Source: a virus. From it: a DNA stretch of 64,000 nt. The notes under the pieces are model-generated. The model made no database searches and was not told where the DNA came from. It was given only the letters and a program-made list of their open reading frames with translations. The translations under genes were made by a program, and so were the position numbers. Shown piece after piece: positions 2,736-64,000 of this stretch (the first letter of the stretch is position 1; every line of letters begins with the position of its first letter). The DNA is taken from positions 30,046 through 94,045 of the IMG/VR virus record IMGVR_UViG_3300046328_000221; one strand, 5' to 3'.

Positions 2736-3830
2736 ATGTCGGAAGAAATAATCAAAAACAATCCTGCTCCAACCAGCTATCCTAATGCGGATGGTGGTTT
2801 TGCTGCAGGTGGTATTGGGGGAGTTGACTCTCCAGCCTTTGCGTTCCTGGGAAATACAGCAACAGCAGAGTTCGGAGAAACTAGCGGTCCAAACGCAGTT
2901 AACCCATCATTTACCGAAAGCCCAAATTACCCAGGTGCTGGTATCCTACGTCCTGATCAAGCTCGTCGTTTTATCGACTATGTTTGGGATGCTACCACAC
3001 TTGCTAATGATGGTCGTCGTGTAACAATGCGAGCTAACACAATGGAACTTGAGAAAGTTAACGTTGGAGAGCGTGTTGTACGTGCTGCAAATCAGGGTGA
3101 TGCATCATTCACAAACGCTGGAGCAACTTTCAGCAAGGTAGAGCTTACCACAAAGAAGCTACGCCTTGACTGGGAAGTTTCAGCAGAAGCACTAGAAGAC
3201 AACATTGAAGGTGGTGCTCTTGAGGATCACATAGTACGTCTTATGACTACTGCTTTTGGTAATGACATCGAAGATCTAGCGATCAACGGTGACACCGATT
3301 CAGCAGATGCGTTCCTTGGCATCATGGACGGTTTCAACAAGAAGATTGCAGCAGATGGTTTCGGTAACGAAGCTGTTGTATCTGCAGGTTCAAACTGGAC
3401 CGTAGAAGACATGCAGAAGCTTATCCTTGCCTTGCCTCGCCGTTACCGTGCGATTCAGTCAGGACTTAAGTTCTATGCAGGATCAGACACATTTGCTAAC
3501 ATCGTAAAGAACAACGGTACCGTATTTGATTCAATTGGATCAACTGAGGCTGCTCGTGGATCATACCTTGGAGGAATCGATCAGACTTTCGGAAACGCTC
3601 GTCAGACTCGTGTTCTAGGTATTCCAGTTCTAGAGGTTCCTTACTACCCTGCGGATTATGTAGACCTTACATTCCCACAGAACCGCATCTGGGGCTTCCA
3701 GCGTGACATCACTGTAAACCGCTTCTATGTTCCTAAGAAGGACACAATTGAGTACACCGTATTCGTACGTTTTGGTATCAATTGGGAAGAGCAGGATGCA
3801 GTTGCATGGGCAGCAAAGCCAGCTTCATAA
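2736..3830 (+). CDS. Major capsid protein (HK97 fold)
   Basis: RBS GGAGG before ATG at 2736; position after protease; EVS.EALEDNIEG and LAINGD motifs; terminator follows. Confidence 0.9.
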   Translation: MSEEIIKNNPAPTSYPNADGGFAAGGIGGVDSPAFAFLGNTATAEFGETSGPNAVNPSFTESPNYPGAGILRPDQARRFIDYVWDATTLANDGRRVTMRANTMELEKVNVGERVVRAANQGDASFTNAGATFSKVELTTKKLRLDWEVSAEALEDNIEGGALEDHIVRLMTTAFGNDIEDLAINGDTDSADAFLGIMDGFNKKIAADGFGNEAVVSAGSNWTVEDMQKLILALPRRYRAIQSGLKFYAGSDTFANIVKNNGTVFDSIGSTEAARGSYLGGIDQTFGNARQTRVLGIPVLEVPYYPADYVDLTFPQNRIWGFQRDITVNRFYVPKKDTIEYTVFVRFGINWEEQDAVAWAAKPAS

Positions 3831-4373: not shown

Positions 4374-5302
4374 TGGAAATCCTAAGAGTTCCACCATATC
4401 CAATTATAACAACCTGGGATGTCCCAGAGGCAAACCATGCATATACAATTTATATTGAAGATGTGGTGGATCACTCTTATGAAACACTAGACGTTATCTC
4501 ATCAGGCGGATCAACCGTTGACTATATTCTTCCACGAGCAAAGGTTCAGTTTGACCGTGATTTTGTTTTTAGAATTCACGATACAGATATTAATGGAGAA
4601 ATCGTTGTAGATTCAAACCTAACAGTTTATCGTCCATATGTAGATCCAAACACTCTTGGAACAACAGCTTCAGAAATAGCAGAATATAAAAAATTAGAGA
4701 TAGTCGCTAGATCAATTATTGACTCATATCTTGGAAATGACTCAGCCAATGGAGAGGGTTTCTATAACCACAAGCTGGTCCTTCAGACAGTTGGACAAGG
4801 AACTGACTATATTCCAATGTGGCATAATCCAAAGAAGATTCTAAAGGCGTATGAGAATAACGTTCTTGTGTATGACTCAGAAACTCCAGAAACAAACATC
4901 TATACATATGTAATCTCACCAGATAACTCTGCAATTATGCGATATGAGGCTGACCTTTATAATAGGCTTGAGCAAGCTCCAGCTAGAGTTCCTGCAGGGA
5001 CTGGAGATCTGGGGTATTATGGAAGAGCTGGAGCAACATTCCCAAGAGGAAATGACTATACTTTTGTCCTTGATGTAGGATACAAAGCAATTCCACCAGA
5101 TGTAGAAATAGCAACAACCATGCTAATTGATGATCTTAAGTGTGGAAGAAATGACTATTACAATAGATTTGTTACTCAATACAGCACAGACCAATTCGAT
5201 ATTAAGTTTAGTGCACAAATGTTAGAGGGTACGGGGAATATGGTAGTAGATAAGATTCTTAATGGATATAAGGGATCTGTTATCAAACCAGGATTGATCT
5301 AA
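4373..5302 (+). CDS. Putative head-tail adaptor
   Basis: Synteny; C-terminal GY..IPPDV.IA motif typical of adaptors. Confidence 0.6.
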   Translation: MEILRVPPYPIITTWDVPEANHAYTIYIEDVVDHSYETLDVISSGGSTVDYILPRAKVQFDRDFVFRIHDTDINGEIVVDSNLTVYRPYVDPNTLGTTASEIAEYKKLEIVARSIIDSYLGNDSANGEGFYNHKLVLQTVGQGTDYIPMWHNPKKILKAYENNVLVYDSETPETNIYTYVISPDNSAIMRYEADLYNRLEQAPARVPAGTGDLGYYGRAGATFPRGNDYTFVLDVGYKAIPPDVEIATTMLIDDLKCGRNDYYNRFVTQYSTDQFDIKFSAQMLEGTGNMVVDKILNGYKGSVIKPGLI

Positions 5303-5748
5303 TGATATGCGAAACCACAGACTTTATGTACCCACTCCTTGCGGATATTTACTATCCAATAGTTGAGCAAGGTGGATTTGGCAATATCAAAAAGCAATGG
5401 ATTCTTGACAGAACCGTTGCCTGCTCATTTAATCCAGCTGGTAGAAAATTTAAGCAAGACCTTCAGATTAATCCAAATATTACACTAGACAATATCCTTG
5501 TTGGTAGAACAAGATCTGATATCCTATCTTCAAATCGTGAAGATCTAAATGCTATGACTAATGTTATTATTACAAATATTCGTGATAGATTTGGTAATAG
5601 GATCTATAATGAGTCATCTGGTATCCGTAAAGGAAAGTCCACAATCTTTGAAATTTCAACCTTTAGTCCAATTGTTGGAGCCTTTGGCTCAACAGAATAC
5701 TACAAGATTGTCCTAGCTCGTTCAGAAAACCAGGGTGCTGATATTTAA
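5302..5748 (+). CDS. Putative head-closure protein
   Basis: Synteny, size, TAATG coupling. Confidence 0.5.
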   Translation: MICETTDFMYPLLADIYYPIVEQGGFGNIKKQWILDRTVACSFNPAGRKFKQDLQINPNITLDNILVGRTRSDILSSNREDLNAMTNVIITNIRDRFGNRIYNESSGIRKGKSTIFEISTFSPIVGAFGSTEYYKIVLARSENQGADI

Positions 5749-42606: not shown

Positions 42607-42675
42607 GGATAGATAGTTTAATAGGCAAAACGGCGTTGATCAGCCAGATTGGGAGTTCGACTCTCCCTCTATCCA
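42607..42675 (+). ncRNA. tRNA-like RNA with shortened anticodon arm (GAT in loop)
   Basis: Perfect acceptor GGATAGA/TCTATCC, D-arm and T-arm; anticodon arm is only GGC-GTTGATCA-GCC. Confidence 0.65.
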
Positions 42676-42768
42676 CGACTTACACCTGCAGTTCGTAATT
42701 GTTCGGCACCTCGCAAGAGATTAAGTTGTAAGCAAAAAGGTTGGTCCACCCTCGTACGAGAACGGCTA

Positions 42769-45174: not shown

Positions 45175-45459
45175 ATGGATAAGAACGTCTGGAAAGATGA
45201 TGGACTTTGTGTAGGATATGATCATGATTTATTCTTTGACAAGTACGAAGAAGATGAAAAGTTAAGGCCTGCAATAGATAAGTTATGTTCAGGATGTCCT
45301 ATGGCAAGACAATGTTTTGCTGTTGGAGTATCTCAAAAAGAATGGGGAGTTTGGGGAGGCATCTATTTAGAAAATGGAAATATCTCTAGAGAGTTCGGGA
45401 AACATAGAACAAAGCAGGACTGGTCAGACACTTGGCAAAATCTAACAAATGATAAGTAG
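45175..45459 (+). CDS. whiB: WhiB-family Fe-S transcription factor
   Basis: C...C..CP...C and GVWGG motifs. Confidence 0.9.
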   Translation: MDKNVWKDDGLCVGYDHDLFFDKYEEDEKLRPAIDKLCSGCPMARQCFAVGVSQKEWGVWGGIYLENGNISREFGKHRTKQDWSDTWQNLTNDK

Positions 45460-53426: not shown

Positions 53427-54118
53427 TAAATCTCCTTTATAGCTTCCATTGTACGTGGAAAGACTGTGTTTGTCAACTCTTCAACTGCCTTTGCATATTC
53501 CTGAATCTCTACCTGTGCATCATGCGGTAAACGCTGTTCAAGGAATGTCATAACAGATTGTAAAGAAGCTGTCCAACGCCAACGAACATACATTCCATAT
53601 GCTGGCAAGAATAGACGTGCAAGTTCTGGAGCAATTCCATCATCCATTGCATCATGGTATGCCTGTGTGCTTTCAGCAATAATCTTAATTAACTTATTAG
53701 TATAAACCATACCAAGTGAGTCACTTACTGGATCACCACTACCCTGCTTAGAATTCTCAGGAGCACTTCTCCACTCGTCATGCAGAGGAACATAGAATTG
53801 TTCATCTTCTGTAATATAACGACGTGAAGACTCATTCCAACCATTCTGATCATCAACGTGCGACGATGCAACCGCATACTTCCACCACTGACGTGCAACA
53901 AATAGAGGTGCATAGACCTCAAAAGTTAGAGCTGCGTGTCTGAATGGACTTGTGTGTCCTTCTCTAGCAAGGAACCTAACGAGCTTTGAATCTCTTTCAG
54001 CGAATTCATTAGATTCTTTATCATAACTAACCCTAGCAGCATTGACAACAGATAGATCGTCGCCAAGAGTGTCCACAAGTCGTACATATCCCTCATCTAA
54101 TACCTCAATCTTATTCAT
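53426..54118 (-). CDS. thyX: FAD-dependent thymidylate synthase
   Basis: AARVSY; H.SPF.H; WNE.SRRY; APELAR; AQ.EI. Confidence 0.92.
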   Translation of the reverse strand: MNKIEVLDEGYVRLVDTLGDDLSVVNAARVSYDKESNEFAERDSKLVRFLAREGHTSPFRHAALTFEVYAPLFVARQWWKYAVASSHVDDQNGWNESSRRYITEDEQFYVPLHDEWRSAPENSKQGSGDPVSDSLGMVYTNKLIKIIAESTQAYHDAMDDGIAPELARLFLPAYGMYVRWRWTASLQSVMTFLEQRLPHDAQVEIQEYAKAVEELTNTVFPRTMEAIKEI

Positions 54119-54282
54119 TTTAATTCCTCAACTATCTTAATTGCAAGGGCAAGGCCTTCTTCTGTAAAGGTCATAGTCCTAGTTGTGTTATGGTCTAATT
54201 GTTTTTGTAAAGCATTAAGAATTTTTGTTCGCTCATCTTTACGAATTTTTTCTTCTTTAAGAAGTGCATGGATACTAATCAT
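54115..54282 (-). CDS. Small protein, divergent ERIIKLL-family member (55 aa)
   Basis: RKDERTKILNAL...GLALAIKIVEELK; coupled to both neighbours. Confidence 0.55.
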   Translation of the reverse strand: MISIHALLKEEKIRKDERTKILNALQKQLDHNTTRTMTFTEEGLALAIKIVEELK

Positions 54283-56927: not shown

Positions 56928-57290
56928 CTATTGACTCTTCTTCCTGTTCAGGAACAGAGTTTTGCTCTGCATGTATGCCAGCCATTTTTGCCATGTCAGC
57001 CTCCCAGCTAGTTACAGTCGCAACGTAGTCACGAAACAGTTCTGTAAATTTTTCCATGTTCATAGTGTATCATTCCTCAGTAGTATTGTCAAGGTCTTGG
57101 ACAAATTTGTCTAACTCTGCACGGTACATAAACATCTTCAGAATCTCAGATCCAAGAACCTTATATTCTATACCATCATACTTAAGGGTATACTCTCTAT
57201 CTGGAAAGATGGGATAGTTAAACTTCATACCCAATTATATCATTAAGACTAATGCTTGACAAATGGTTCTGACCTCTGTATACTTGTTAT

Positions 57291-57461
57291 ATGATCTGTT
57301 GGTATTGTAATAAAGAGCTAGGGGATACTCCTAGTGTAACCTATTCTAAAAGAAAAGGCAACAAGACCCAACAGTTAACTGTTCATGGAAACTGCTATAG
57401 ATCCATGCGTAAACAAAAGATAGGGTATAAAGTAATTGCCCCAGGAAGTGTATCACAATGA
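57291..57461 (+). CDS. Small Cys-containing protein (56 aa, not in ORF track)
   Basis: Leaderless after TTGACA-17-TATACT; ATGA-coupled to the next gene. Confidence 0.55.
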   Translation: MICWYCNKELGDTPSVTYSKRKGNKTQQLTVHGNCYRSMRKQKIGYKVIAPGSVSQ

Positions 57462-57694
57462 AACTACCTAAGATATTTAGCTGGCGATTACGCCTTGTTC
57501 AGTCAGGTTACGATATGGGCTGGAACCATGGTTATGAAGCTGGGAAGATTGAAAGACAGAATGAAATTGTAGACCTATTGTCATACAAGATTGAGTCAGT
57601 TGACTGGCTACGAGAAGAGCCTATCAACATTAATGATGTTGTCCCATTAGTAAAGAATCACAAGATTAATCAAGAACCTATTGGATGGAAGTAA
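57458..57694 (+). CDS. Small protein, divergent ERIIKLL-family member
   Basis: GYEAGKIERQNEIVDLL...VVPLVK. Confidence 0.55.
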   Translation: MKLPKIFSWRLRLVQSGYDMGWNHGYEAGKIERQNEIVDLLSYKIESVDWLREEPININDVVPLVKNHKINQEPIGWK

Positions 57695-58458: not shown

Positions 58459-58634
58459 AAACACAATTTGACATTGAAGACTATCTAGACTATCTAACTA
58501 ACCACCTACGCAAGACCCTTACCAAAGATTTCGGGGCAGATGGTGGACACATAGTAGATCTACTATCTAATACAACTACACAAATAGATGCTATCTTTTA
58601 CTGGATGGCTGATTATCCTGGGGAAGTTAAATGA
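58455..58634 (+). CDS. Hypothetical protein (59 aa, not in ORF track)
   Basis: ATGA-coupled on both sides. Confidence 0.55.
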   Translation: MKTQFDIEDYLDYLTNHLRKTLTKDFGADGGHIVDLLSNTTTQIDAIFYWMADYPGEVK

Positions 58635-58879
58635 GCGGATTTCAAAAAAGAGTAGCATTGCTTGAAAAGTGGGCACCAAGTCTATTGCCAAAGCTAAGGG
58701 ATATTGACGACATGGCTGAAATTATCCTAGACGTTTGGGATGAAGCAGAGGCACATACTGAGGAACGCATTATTAAGTTGCTAGACGAGTTTATTGAAAA
58801 CAGCGATTTACCAGAAGTTGTAGACCGTTTGGAATGGCTTAAAGGCAGTATCAAAGGAAAAACAAATGAGCCTGACTGA
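58631..58879 (+). CDS. ERIIKLL-family mini-protein
   Basis: HTEERIIKLL...SIKGKTNE. Confidence 0.7.
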   Translation: MSGFQKRVALLEKWAPSLLPKLRDIDDMAEIILDVWDEAEAHTEERIIKLLDEFIENSDLPEVVDRLEWLKGSIKGKTNEPD

Positions 58880-59045
58880 ATACAGGGTTGGCGATAAGGC
58901 TATTTGGAATGCTGGGCGTGAGTATGAACAGGAACGCATTATCAAGTTGCTAAAGCGACTATGGGAAAAGACTCAAGGAACAGATTTGCCAGCAGTAGTT
59001 GTTTTGCCTGAAGCAATCGAACTTATCAAGGGAGAAAACAAATGA
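58866..59045 (+). CDS. ERIIKLL-family mini-protein (59 aa, not in ORF track)
   Basis: GREYEQERIIKLL...AIELIKGENK. Confidence 0.75.
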   Translation: MSLTEYRVGDKAIWNAGREYEQERIIKLLKRLWEKTQGTDLPAVVVLPEAIELIKGENK

Positions 59046-59272
59046 GTGAAAAATGGAACATTGATTATGATAGCGGTTTTAACTCTGGTGCGGAGCATGA
59101 GCATAAAAAAATTATCAATATTTTAAAAGATAACTTTTCTTTTGCTATGGACTGCGAAACTCAAGAGTGCTTACAAAATGCGGCTAATTCAATTACTTGG
59201 AGCGAACGTTGGCAGTTATCTTTCAATCAACTTATCGAACTTATCAAGGGAGAAACTAATGAGCTTAGATAA
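59042..59272 (+). CDS. ERIIKLL-family mini-protein
   Basis: GAEHEHKKIINIL...LIELIKGETNE. Confidence 0.7.
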   Translation: MSEKWNIDYDSGFNSGAEHEHKKIINILKDNFSFAMDCETQECLQNAANSITWSERWQLSFNQLIELIKGETNELR

Positions 59273-59441
59273 TTTCCAAGAGGCTATGGATAGATTGACT
59301 GAAAAGGTTGAGATGCAGGATACTACGCTTAAAGTTCTCTCTGAGGCAGCAGATCGTATTGAGGATAAGCTCAATATTGTGGATATACCATATGGACAAC
59401 ATCCACCACAGAGGTTTCGGGATATCTCTAACGGAGAATAA
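59259..59441 (+). CDS. Hypothetical coiled-coil protein
   Basis: Starts at the shared AAGGGAGA RBS junction. Confidence 0.55.
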   Translation: MSLDNFQEAMDRLTEKVEMQDTTLKVLSEAADRIEDKLNIVDIPYGQHPPQRFRDISNGE

Positions 59442-59562
59442 GTTCGGCGTAAAATTCGGCGGTAAATAAGAGTTTCTACAAGCCACAGGCTTGACATTCT
59501 CTAGTATCCCTAGTATAATTAATAAACAAAGCCAATATTAAATACATTTAAGGAAAATACAC

Positions 59563-62598: not shown

Positions 62599-62997
62599 TC
62601 AAGACTTATTTCTAAATTTAATTAGGGCTTCCTTCTTGCATACCTTGCAATCCAGCTGTCCAGTTTTCTTATTTATATAATCTCTCTTATGTCCTCTTTT
62701 GCAATACTCTTTACGCTTATACTCATACTCATATAGGTTGCGTCTTCTAGAGTTCTCACCCTTAGTGACTGCTTCTAAATGTTTTGGATTAACGCAAAGG
62801 GTATTATTACAGAGATGATCAATAGTTAAATCATTTAGTACTTGTCCTGTATAGTATTCATAAGAGAATCTGTGTGCTTTATTACCATGTTCATGCCTAA
62901 ACATTCCATACCCTGCCCAGGTGCTGGCTATCCAATTCCAACATCCAGACACTGGGTCTACGGTATACTTAGATGTAAATCTGTCTATTATTTCCAT
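62599..62997 (-). CDS. HNH homing endonuclease
   Basis: CWNW; GYG; AHR.SY; IDHLC.N..CVNP.HL; C.RGH. Confidence 0.9.
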   Translation of the reverse strand: MEIIDRFTSKYTVDPVSGCWNWIASTWAGYGMFRHEHGNKAHRFSYEYYTGQVLNDLTIDHLCNNTLCVNPKHLEAVTKGENSRRRNLYEYEYKRKEYCKRGHKRDYINKKTGQLDCKVCKKEALIKFRNKS

Positions 62998-63025: not shown

Positions 63026-63169
63026 CTAAAAGTGCATATCACAAGGCACTAGATACCATGAATCGTCAAGCGTGTCAAGAACCCATTTAGGATTTGTTGA
63101 CCAGTTGCTTAGGTCATAGAAGTATGAGTTCATATCCCATTTACCCTGCAACCATTCCCCATAGAAACA
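63026..63169 (-). pseudogene. C-terminal remnant of a gene (...LQGKWDMNSYFYDL...WYLVPCDMHF)
   Basis: Protein-like frame with no proper start; begins at a 24-bp repeat. Confidence 0.45.
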
Positions 63170-63442
63170 TCATTTGTTCTCTCCCTTGATAAGAGCAATC
63201 AGATGTTCTCCGTACCAGTTTTCAAAGTCTCCACAGGTGCAGCCAACAAAACCACCTTCAATACCTGCTTCTGGCTCATGCGACTCCATCAGTCCAAAAA
63301 TGCGTTCACGCTCATTGGTAATTGTCTTAGCTTTATATTTTGCTAACCAAAGGTCAAACATTCGGTTTGCGTAAGTGCTATCTACTCTTTCGGCTGAGTA
63401 TGCGTCACGCACATCTGCTGTTTTTGGTATAAGGTCACTCAT
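63170..63442 (-). CDS. ERIIKLL-family mini-protein
   Basis: ERERIFGLM...CTCG...LIALIKGENK. Confidence 0.7.
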   Translation of the reverse strand: MSDLIPKTADVRDAYSAERVDSTYANRMFDLWLAKYKAKTITNERERIFGLMESHEPEAGIEGGFVGCTCGDFENWYGEHLIALIKGENK

Positions 63443-63687
63443 TTTGTTTCTCCCTTGATAAGTTCAAGTGCTAGGTTGATGCCGTCTTTAAGCGACCAAG
63501 CACCATCTTCTTCATAGTAGGCACCCTCAATGCTTTCTAAAAGTTTGATAATCCGCTCCTCGGCGTGTTTCACACCTAACTGAAACTCTGATACCCCACA
63601 ACATTCGCAAGGTTCGGTGAACTCTTTTGGTGGGTTATTGATGATGTTGTAAATGTGTGTGTCTTTGTTGTTGTTATTTATACTCAT
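63439..63687 (-). CDS. ERIIKLL-family mini-protein
   Basis: GVKHAEERIIKLL...ALELIKGETK. Confidence 0.75.
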   Translation of the reverse strand: MSINNNNKDTHIYNIINNPPKEFTEPCECCGVSEFQLGVKHAEERIIKLLESIEGAYYEEDGAWSLKDGINLALELIKGETK

Positions 63688-63905
63688 TTCTTTTCCTCCG
63701 CTTTCCAGGTATCAATAAGGTCAATTGCCTCACAAAAACAAAAACCCTTTGTGTTGTGAGTTCCAATTGTGCATTTGTTATTTTCTCGTAGCATTGCCAT
63801 CAATTCCTCCTTGGCATACTCTGTGCCATTGAAAAACCCTGTATTGTATTCAGCCTCAATTGCTTTGCCAATTACTTTGTTTTGTTCTTTTGTAAACTCA
63901 GACAT
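63684..63905 (-). CDS. ERIIKLL-family mini-protein (divergent)
   Basis: GTEYAKEELMAML...CFCEAIDLI. Confidence 0.6.
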   Translation of the reverse strand: MSEFTKEQNKVIGKAIEAEYNTGFFNGTEYAKEELMAMLRENNKCTIGTHNTKGFCFCEAIDLIDTWKAEEKK

Positions 63906-63999
63906 TTGTTTTCTCCTTACGGTAATCCATCCACTTGAAAAGCAGAATCAGCGGTGAAGCAAGGTATAGCCCTGCAACCATTCCCCATAGAAATGTCAT
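63898..63999 (-). CDS. 33-aa membrane peptide MTFLWGMVAGLYLASPLILLFKW...
   Basis: Hydrophobic ORF whose end carries the RBS for the next gene. Confidence 0.5.
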   Translation of the reverse strand: MTFLWGMVAGLYLASPLILLFKWMDYRKEKTNV

Positions 64000-64000
64000 T

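Follow-up and report, generated by a model that had tools for sequence, protein, structure and literature searches.

In T4-type phages, the modules of the hyperplastic regions are shuffled by way of PeSL (promoter-early stem-loop) cassettes (PMC2839356; PMC4122927). A PeSL is an intergenic element that combines a strong promoter with a terminator hairpin. It is the closest known concept for the small-gene arrays described here: in both, short conserved sequences border small non-essential genes and act, or in our case would act, as homologous recombination sites, and recombination at these borders inserts, deletes or replaces genes between related phages. The sigma-70-type early promoter, terminator stem-loop and intergenic borders of a PeSL-type cassette were not found at the array anchors. 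Unlike PeSL, one anchor is a Shine-Dalgarno (SD)-stop-start junction and the other lies in frame and encodes a helix that is itself under selection. Protein halves would thus be shuffled here as well as whole genes.

Other systems share single features with the arrays. In lambdoid phages, boundary ('linker') sequences at gene junctions provide short homologies that guide mosaic exchange. The arrays would likewise use short homologies at gene borders, but one standardised junction string of 20-25 nt recurs in many genes and a second anchor is intragenic. Polymorphic toxins exchange unrelated C-terminal cassettes by recombination, CdiA-CT after VENN and Rhs tips after PxxxxDPxGL. There too a short conserved peptide/DNA motif marks the point of exchange; in contrast to those toxins, the proteins described here are tiny and phage-encoded, the parts before and after the motif both vary, and there is no sign of toxin activity, immunity genes or secretion systems. 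Small host-takeover genes are clustered in the terminal redundancies of the Bacillus phage SPO1 and the coliphage T5. One of our arrays is similarly a small-gene cluster with strong ribosome-binding sites in a terminal repeat, but the repeat measures 831 nt only, is perhaps not a physical terminus, and has no sequence or fold similarity to those modules.

We examined two arrays in a viral contig and compared them with related sequences. The reading that we favour, and hold to be fairly probable, is that they belong to a large actinophage small-protein family whose diversity is generated at two anchors by homologous recombination, chiefly between different phages.

Members of the family in the window

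The window, that is, the whole stretch of 64,000 nt that was analysed, is the final 64 kb of a record consisting of a single contig of 94,045 nt. The ERIIKLL...LIKGE family has no existing name and was defined by a profile from which the window's own genes were left out; it was built from 116 external homologues and run over the 805 ORFs of the genome. Six distinct members were found, all of them significant: three in a plus-strand array at 58631-59272 (58631-58879, 58866-59045 and 59042-59272; E = 8e-10 to 2e-24), which was characterised by profile searches and module analysis, and three on the minus strand at the end of the contig (63439-63687, E = 2.7e-26; 63684-63905, E = 8.7e-18; 63170-63442, E = 1.2e-6). 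The profile bears out, for all three terminal genes, the claim of an earlier note that they belong to the same family as the array near 59 kb. That note had arrived at about eight members by adding weaker matches at 54115-54282 and 57458-57694. These scored E = 1.4 (minus strand; hhalign probability 0.3%) and E = 1.5 (plus strand; 0.6%), respectively, and were rejected, 57458-57694 being at most a remote relative; six members are supportable.

Leave-one-out profiles made from the window's six genes only recovered 58866-59045 (E = 6e-8), 59042-59272 (E = 4e-7) and 63439-63687 (E = 1.5e-6). The result was marginal for 58631-58879 (E = 0.028) and non-significant for 63170-63442 (E = 0.53) and 63684-63905 (E = 0.49). 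Judged by these scores, the membership of the last two genes rests on external homologues; that of 63684-63905 is secured by its loop class, which it shares with canonical members.

Proteins of the family measure about 50-130 aa and share one layout: a variable N module, a hinge helix (E/R)ERIIKLLE (canonically ERERIIKLLE), a hypervariable, often Cys/His-rich loop and a C-terminal helix AIxLIKGE (canonically AIALIKGE). A simple pattern found hinge plus tail in 226 of 252 proteins. Alignments and AF2 helices agree on a hinge helix, a variable loop and an amphipathic C-terminal helix: models of 63439-63687 (pLDDT 72.7; helices 32-51 and 66-77) and 63684-63905 (pLDDT 78.7; helices 6-41 and 58-72) showed a confidently predicted helix on the hinge and another on the tail, the intervening loop being of lower confidence. 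The median loop is 24 aa long (range 14-74), and loops are mutually unalignable; 52% contain at least two Cys and 42% contain none.

Gene content of the terminal array

Four minus-strand ORFs with overlapping stops and starts lie in a row at the contig end (63898-63999, 63684-63905, 63439-63687 and 63170-63442). The first encodes a 33-aa hydrophobic product (MTFLWGMVAGLYLASPLILLFKW...), and its end shares 8 nt with the beginning of the gene that follows. The three family members come next, coupled to one another as the earlier note had described; their stops and starts overlap as ATGA.

The product of 63684-63905 (73 aa; module N6, loop class C2) has a divergent hinge (KEELMAMLR) and tail (AIDLIDTWKAEEKK; AIDLIDTW). 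Its loop reads C-x4-H-x5-C-x-C, and C45, C56 and C58 are invariant in 38 sequences. The same loop class, NxKC...H...GxCxC-EAI, also occurs in proteins with the canonical ERERIIKLL...ALIKGE. The second member, 63439-63687 (82 aa; N1, loop class C3), carries the N module INNPPKEFTEPCExCGVSEFQLGV, and its hinge (EERIIKLLE) and tail (LELIKGETK) are both canonical. The third, 63170-63442 (90 aa; N5, loop class C7, H...CxC...H), has the hinge RERIFGLME and the tail IALIKGENK. The Cys motifs CECC, CTCG and CFC reported earlier are present in the translations, but CECC belongs to the conserved N module and not to the variable loop. In the plus-strand array, N2 is joined to C17 (58631-58879), N3 to C1 (58866-59045) and N4 to C8 (59042-59272).

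The terminal repeat

The block that had been taken for a second array is the contig's terminal repeat: the genes are real and oppositely oriented, but blastn showed window positions 63170-64000 to be identical to genome positions 1-831 (831/831), with a period of 826 nt, and the mini-gene array is therefore present twice in the record. IMG/VR classes the record as carrying direct terminal repeats (DTR), and CheckV gives a completeness of 69%.

The 826-nt unit consists of a small hydrophobic ORF and, after it, three family members; imperfect 31-nt direct repeats on the minus strand bracket it. Copy A (63970-64000) is the start of the 33-aa hydrophobic ORF. Copy B (63144-63174) differs from it by 2 mismatches and is the stump of a further small-ORF copy (MMFLWGMVAG-stop, 63141-63173). 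Exact repetition begins at the first base of copy A and ends at the last base common to A and B before the first mismatch. If the unit continues into either copy A or copy B, this end coincides with an expected de Bruijn branch point. The repeat at the record's ends would then be an assembly-graph repeat, and a tandem or second copy of the 826-nt unit is most likely, ahead of a packaging DTR. At a tandem junction, ...GAGAACAAATGA would read directly into CATTTCTATGG. The unit may have been caught in two copies or in two contexts.

A true packaging DTR, in which each virion would carry the genes twice and deliver them to the cell first, as with the terminal-redundancy host-takeover genes of SPO1 and the pre-early genes of T5, is consistent with the exact repetition of the ends and with the class of the record. 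Long DTRs are also found in the Streptomyces phages that have the closest polymerase match. We nevertheless consider this reading unlikely. In short-read assembly a DTR collapses to a cycle with a k-mer-sized overlap, compared with 831 nt here, and the repeat borders fall where a graph containing copies A and B would branch. The gene block also runs uninterrupted across the ends and is contiguous in a relative (L016; GC 0.40), both contig ends being syntenic with one continuous stretch of that contig. This synteny suggests that the circle probably closes and that the CheckV estimate may be low. The 'terminal repeat' of the record is in itself no proof of a complete genome.

Flanking genes and mobility within the genome

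Downstream of the unit lies a decapitated gene (63026-63151, minus strand), which retains the final 41 codons of a gene that L016 carries complete (181 aa; 4837-5382; tblastx 84% over 44 aa). Its first 140 codons are missing from the genome; the 181-aa gene is intact in both L016 and L017. Homology to L016 starts within the last ~12 nt of copy B, where the window reads ATGGTTGCAGGG and L016 reads ATG-TTGCAGGG, so that copy B is what is left of a second small-ORF unit; its fusion to the resident gene lies at a stretch with 11/12 matching positions. At the position of the unit L016 carries other genes and zero family members. The array region is a hyperplastic small-gene zone.

An HNH endonuclease-like gene (62599-62997, minus strand) is missing from the syntenic position in L016. 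The genes that flank it are directly adjacent in L016, where another, different HNH-like gene (3429-3824) is encoded on the opposite strand at a distance of 1.5 kb.

The earlier note had concluded that the units are mobile within the genome. Autonomous elements that copy themselves, such as mini-transposons or homing-endonuclease-dependent cassettes, would fit the opposite orientation of the two arrays, which lie 4 kb apart, as well as the HNH gene that adjoins the array and is missing in the relative, the direct repeats that bracket the unit, and the behaviour of the unit as a repeat at the contig ends. The six members, however, are not copies of one another: pairwise identity is 25-41%, and N modules and loops all differ. 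The 31-nt repeat is not a target-site duplication but marks where a paralogous small ORF starts; copy B is fused to a decapitated gene. In relatives, HNH genes stand at different places. Neither terminal inverted repeats around the array nor a reverse transcriptase in the genome was found, and no transposase or integrase turned up in searches aimed at other features. The inverted repeats and near-identical copies of transposable mini-elements (e.g. the MPME type of mycobacteriophages) are likewise absent. For integron-type gene cassettes, which have attC recombination sites and an integron integrase, the observation covers the gene junctions, where no inverted-repeat sites were seen. Each member has closer relatives in other phage contigs, for example at 91% identity for 63439-63687 (P0011) and 90% for 63684-63905. 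Because identity within the genome is low, no modules are shared and relatives elsewhere are so much closer, intragenomic mobility is unsupported, and we regard it as quite improbable. Module exchange between phages, at the hinge and at the gene junction, is the best-supported reading of these comparisons.

Two conserved anchors

The junction and hinge strings of the terminal array match the 59-kb array, as had been noticed, with three sites each and none expected in shuffled sequence, and these conserved anchors flank unrelated cores. The junction string CTTATCAAGGGAGARAMNAAATGA occurs at 63170-63193 (minus), 63439-63462 (minus) and 59022-59045 (plus), with 0 expected in 100 shuffles; in the form CTTATCAAGGGAGA..AAATGA the junction is found three times in the window, twice at the terminal array and once at 59022. 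The hinge string GARCGNATTATYAARYTNYTA occurs at 63538-63558 (minus), 58763-58783 (plus) and 58932-58952 (plus), again with 0 expected. Hinge DNA at 63538-63558 reads GAGCGGATTATCAAACTTTTA and encodes the same peptide as the two plus-strand sites.

At the junction, the K-G-E codons (AAG GGA GA.) are the SD sequence of the next gene. They read AAGGGAGA or AAAGGAGAG and stand 8-9 nt upstream of the next start, which the stop overlaps as ATGA or GTGA. Could the similarity among members be nothing more than convergence at gene ends, the needs of SD and stop/start overlap making unrelated genes end in ...IKGExK? For the tail this has some force. The string ATCAA(A/G)GGAGA...(A/G)TGA ends many unrelated genes in related contigs, including one for a 656-aa protein, with tails of the form ...IKGE(N/Q/T)K-stop. 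The KGETNE type of tail results from this junction DNA when the spacer is 1 nt shorter and reading continues into the ATGAG of the next gene. Since the same junction ends unrelated genes, the last 3-5 residues are part of a portable junction and not of the protein family, and judging from these tails part of the members' similarity is junction-driven.

As a complete explanation, convergence is refuted, and we give it very little credence. The hinge lies mid-gene, far from starts, and ERIIKLLE is near-invariant in 116 proteins. Between the hinge of 63439-63687 and those of the 59-kb array there are up to six synonymous third-codon differences, and the peptide EERIIKLL is kept; its retention with different codons in the two arrays indicates that the hinge peptide is selected too. 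The hydrophobic AIxLI helix before KGE is not within the SD sequence, 63684-63905 lacks KGE and yet aligns through hinge, Cys loop and tail helix, and leave-one-out profiles recovered three members at 1e-6 to 6e-8. The alternative proposed earlier, similarity driven only by ribosome-binding sites, fails for the hinge, whose recoded peptide is shared by more than 1300 protein clusters, and survives for the last 3-5 residues only.

Codon usage at the anchors was unusual. Hinge Arg is encoded by CGC three times and by CGG once in this genome, where these codons make up 8% and 1% of Arg codons; at the 13 other Arg positions of the six genes neither codon is used. For the tail Ile, 5/5 members have ATC, compared with a usage of 18%. 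Hinge DNA is mostly GAA CGC ATT ATC AAG TTG CTA across contigs of 39-54% GC. The deviation of hinge Arg and tail Ile from genome usage points to homogenisation or import of anchor DNA. Conservation of hinge codons could in part reflect shared recent ancestry of N1-type genes instead of recombination.

No terminator-like sites were found in either array and no promoter-like sites on the anchors; a lone promoter-like site inside the array (63871-63843, minus strand) lies off the anchors. The hinge was accordingly rejected as a promoter.

Hinge and tail anchors share the 8-mer TTATCAAG (codons.TT ATC AAG, I/L-I-K), which is found at 58763-58783, 58932-58952, 59016-59045, 63170-63198, 63439-63467 and 63538-63558. 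Were hinge and tail to recombine out of register, a loop would be deleted or duplicated. The tail of 59042-59272 (...KGETNELR) is the junction read in another frame, and a fourth gene, from outside the family (MSLDNFQEAMDRL...; 59258-59441, plus strand) starts at an ATG inside this junction.

Exchange of modules at the anchors

To describe module combinations, the 116 proteins were cut at the hinge and tail columns. This yielded 34 clusters of N modules and 67 of loops. N1, present in 36 proteins, is found with 27 different loops and loop C1 with 19 different N modules, and two or three N modules accompany each of several loops. The modules of the terminal array recur in the same manner: three proteins (P0005, P0007 and P0040) combine the N module of 63170-63442 with the loop of 58866-59045, and the loop of 63170-63442 is found again in P0106. 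The hit list had been chosen with a profile of the six window genes and is enriched for their modules, so that the combinations are real but their frequencies are biased.

Comparisons at the DNA level drew on ~15 related loci. Among 13 N1-type genes (the window's and those of 12 metagenomic loci), per-codon identity was mostly 0.5-1.0, typically ~0.8-0.85, up to the hinge; right after the hinge codons nucleotide identity dropped to ~0.3, the random level. Over N1 plus hinge, dN/dS was ~0.13-0.15 at a mean dS of ~1. This purifying selection on the N1 module indicates that the N1-type genes encode real proteins. Because the breakpoints are codon-sharp, the genes would represent a clean natural case of anchor-guided protein-module shuffling, one in which a shuffling anchor sits inside the reading frame.

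Diversification of the loops in place by targeted hypermutation, through a diversity-generating retroelement or similar, would account for a hypervariable segment between constant flanks, but it has a negligible chance of being correct, as the loops range from 14 to 74 aa and cannot be aligned with each other, the same loop is found with different N modules, and the genome has no match to RVT_1 (reverse transcriptase).

We infer the mechanism of recombination at the anchors from comparison. Diversity would arise by homologous recombination at the two conserved DNA anchors: in-frame crossovers at the hinge would swap loops relative to N modules, and crossovers at the SD-stop-start junction would swap, add or delete whole genes. 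These exchanges would take place mostly between co-infecting phages. With modules joining at standardised anchors, any co-infection could make new combinations and the copy number within an array could change.

Family size, host and possible role

An exhaustive HMM search of 1.84 billion representatives placed 1356 clusters at 50% identity in the family (E <= 1e-3). A word-indexed search gave 2229 matches at E <= 1 among 8000 candidates scored. Tandem arrays of 3-6 members with (A/G)TGA overlaps were present in five related contigs (L001, L004, L005, L008 and L011).

The family matched no described protein in the collections searched. Neither the six genes nor 116 relatives matched Pfam, PHROGs or NCBIfam above chance level, and searches of 50,697 cultured-phage records by tblastn and blastn had no match below E = 0.3. 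The ESM Atlas returned unnamed viral clusters only, Foldseek found no fold match in PDB or BFVD, and a literature search for the family motifs found no relevant paper. The 24-nt junction repeat was absent from the viral contig collection searched. Across the genomes of 185,579 species, the hinge-plus-tail DNA pattern had two matches, both due to chance and with stop codons; no prophage copies were seen with this narrow pattern.

A WhiB-family gene at 45190-45363 (plus strand; genome 75235-75408) scored over the Pfam cut-off, which identifies the phage as an actinobacteriophage despite its GC content of 38.7%. Its DnaE-like polymerase is 55% identical to the polymerase of Streptomyces phages, and in L003 a WhiB-like gene lies two genes downstream of a family member. 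The host is actinobacterial, and the family is one of actinobacterial phages. More than 1300 clusters without a Pfam, PHROGs or NCBIfam model amount to sizeable viral dark matter among the phages of actinobacteria that are abundant and mostly uncultured. For annotation, a shared ...IKGExK tail should be read as junction DNA and not as a protein domain.

Should the loops bind host targets, family members would together form a repertoire of takeover or anti-defence factors. We tentatively suggest that aquatic actinophages may possess a recombination-based system for small-protein diversity, with two standardised anchors and a repertoire of host-binding loops under arms-race selection. That the products are host-interaction proteins (takeover or anti-defence), in which a two-helix scaffold shows a variable, often metal-binding loop, is a guess and a somewhat more doubtful one.

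Additional observations

Near-perfect or perfect TTGACA-17-TATAAT-like sites were found at 57256-57284 (plus), 59491-59519 (plus) and 60195-60167 (minus). The three lie to either side of the plus-strand array and of the convergent intergenic zone (59.8-60.7 kb); overall, such sites were no more numerous than expected from shuffling. Eight tRNA genes were called, including one at 42607-42676 (plus strand) whose anticodon loop was unreadable by ARAGORN (tRNA-???, 'ga').

The junction stop was lost in some relatives (L001, 5346-5717; L004, 3658-4014; P0005), and in these the family domain is fused to a downstream Cys-rich peptide (HTHEIDVFGSPCDCGTRHEYCNNC...). Two family domains were present in one protein in P0036, P0101 and ~15 others.
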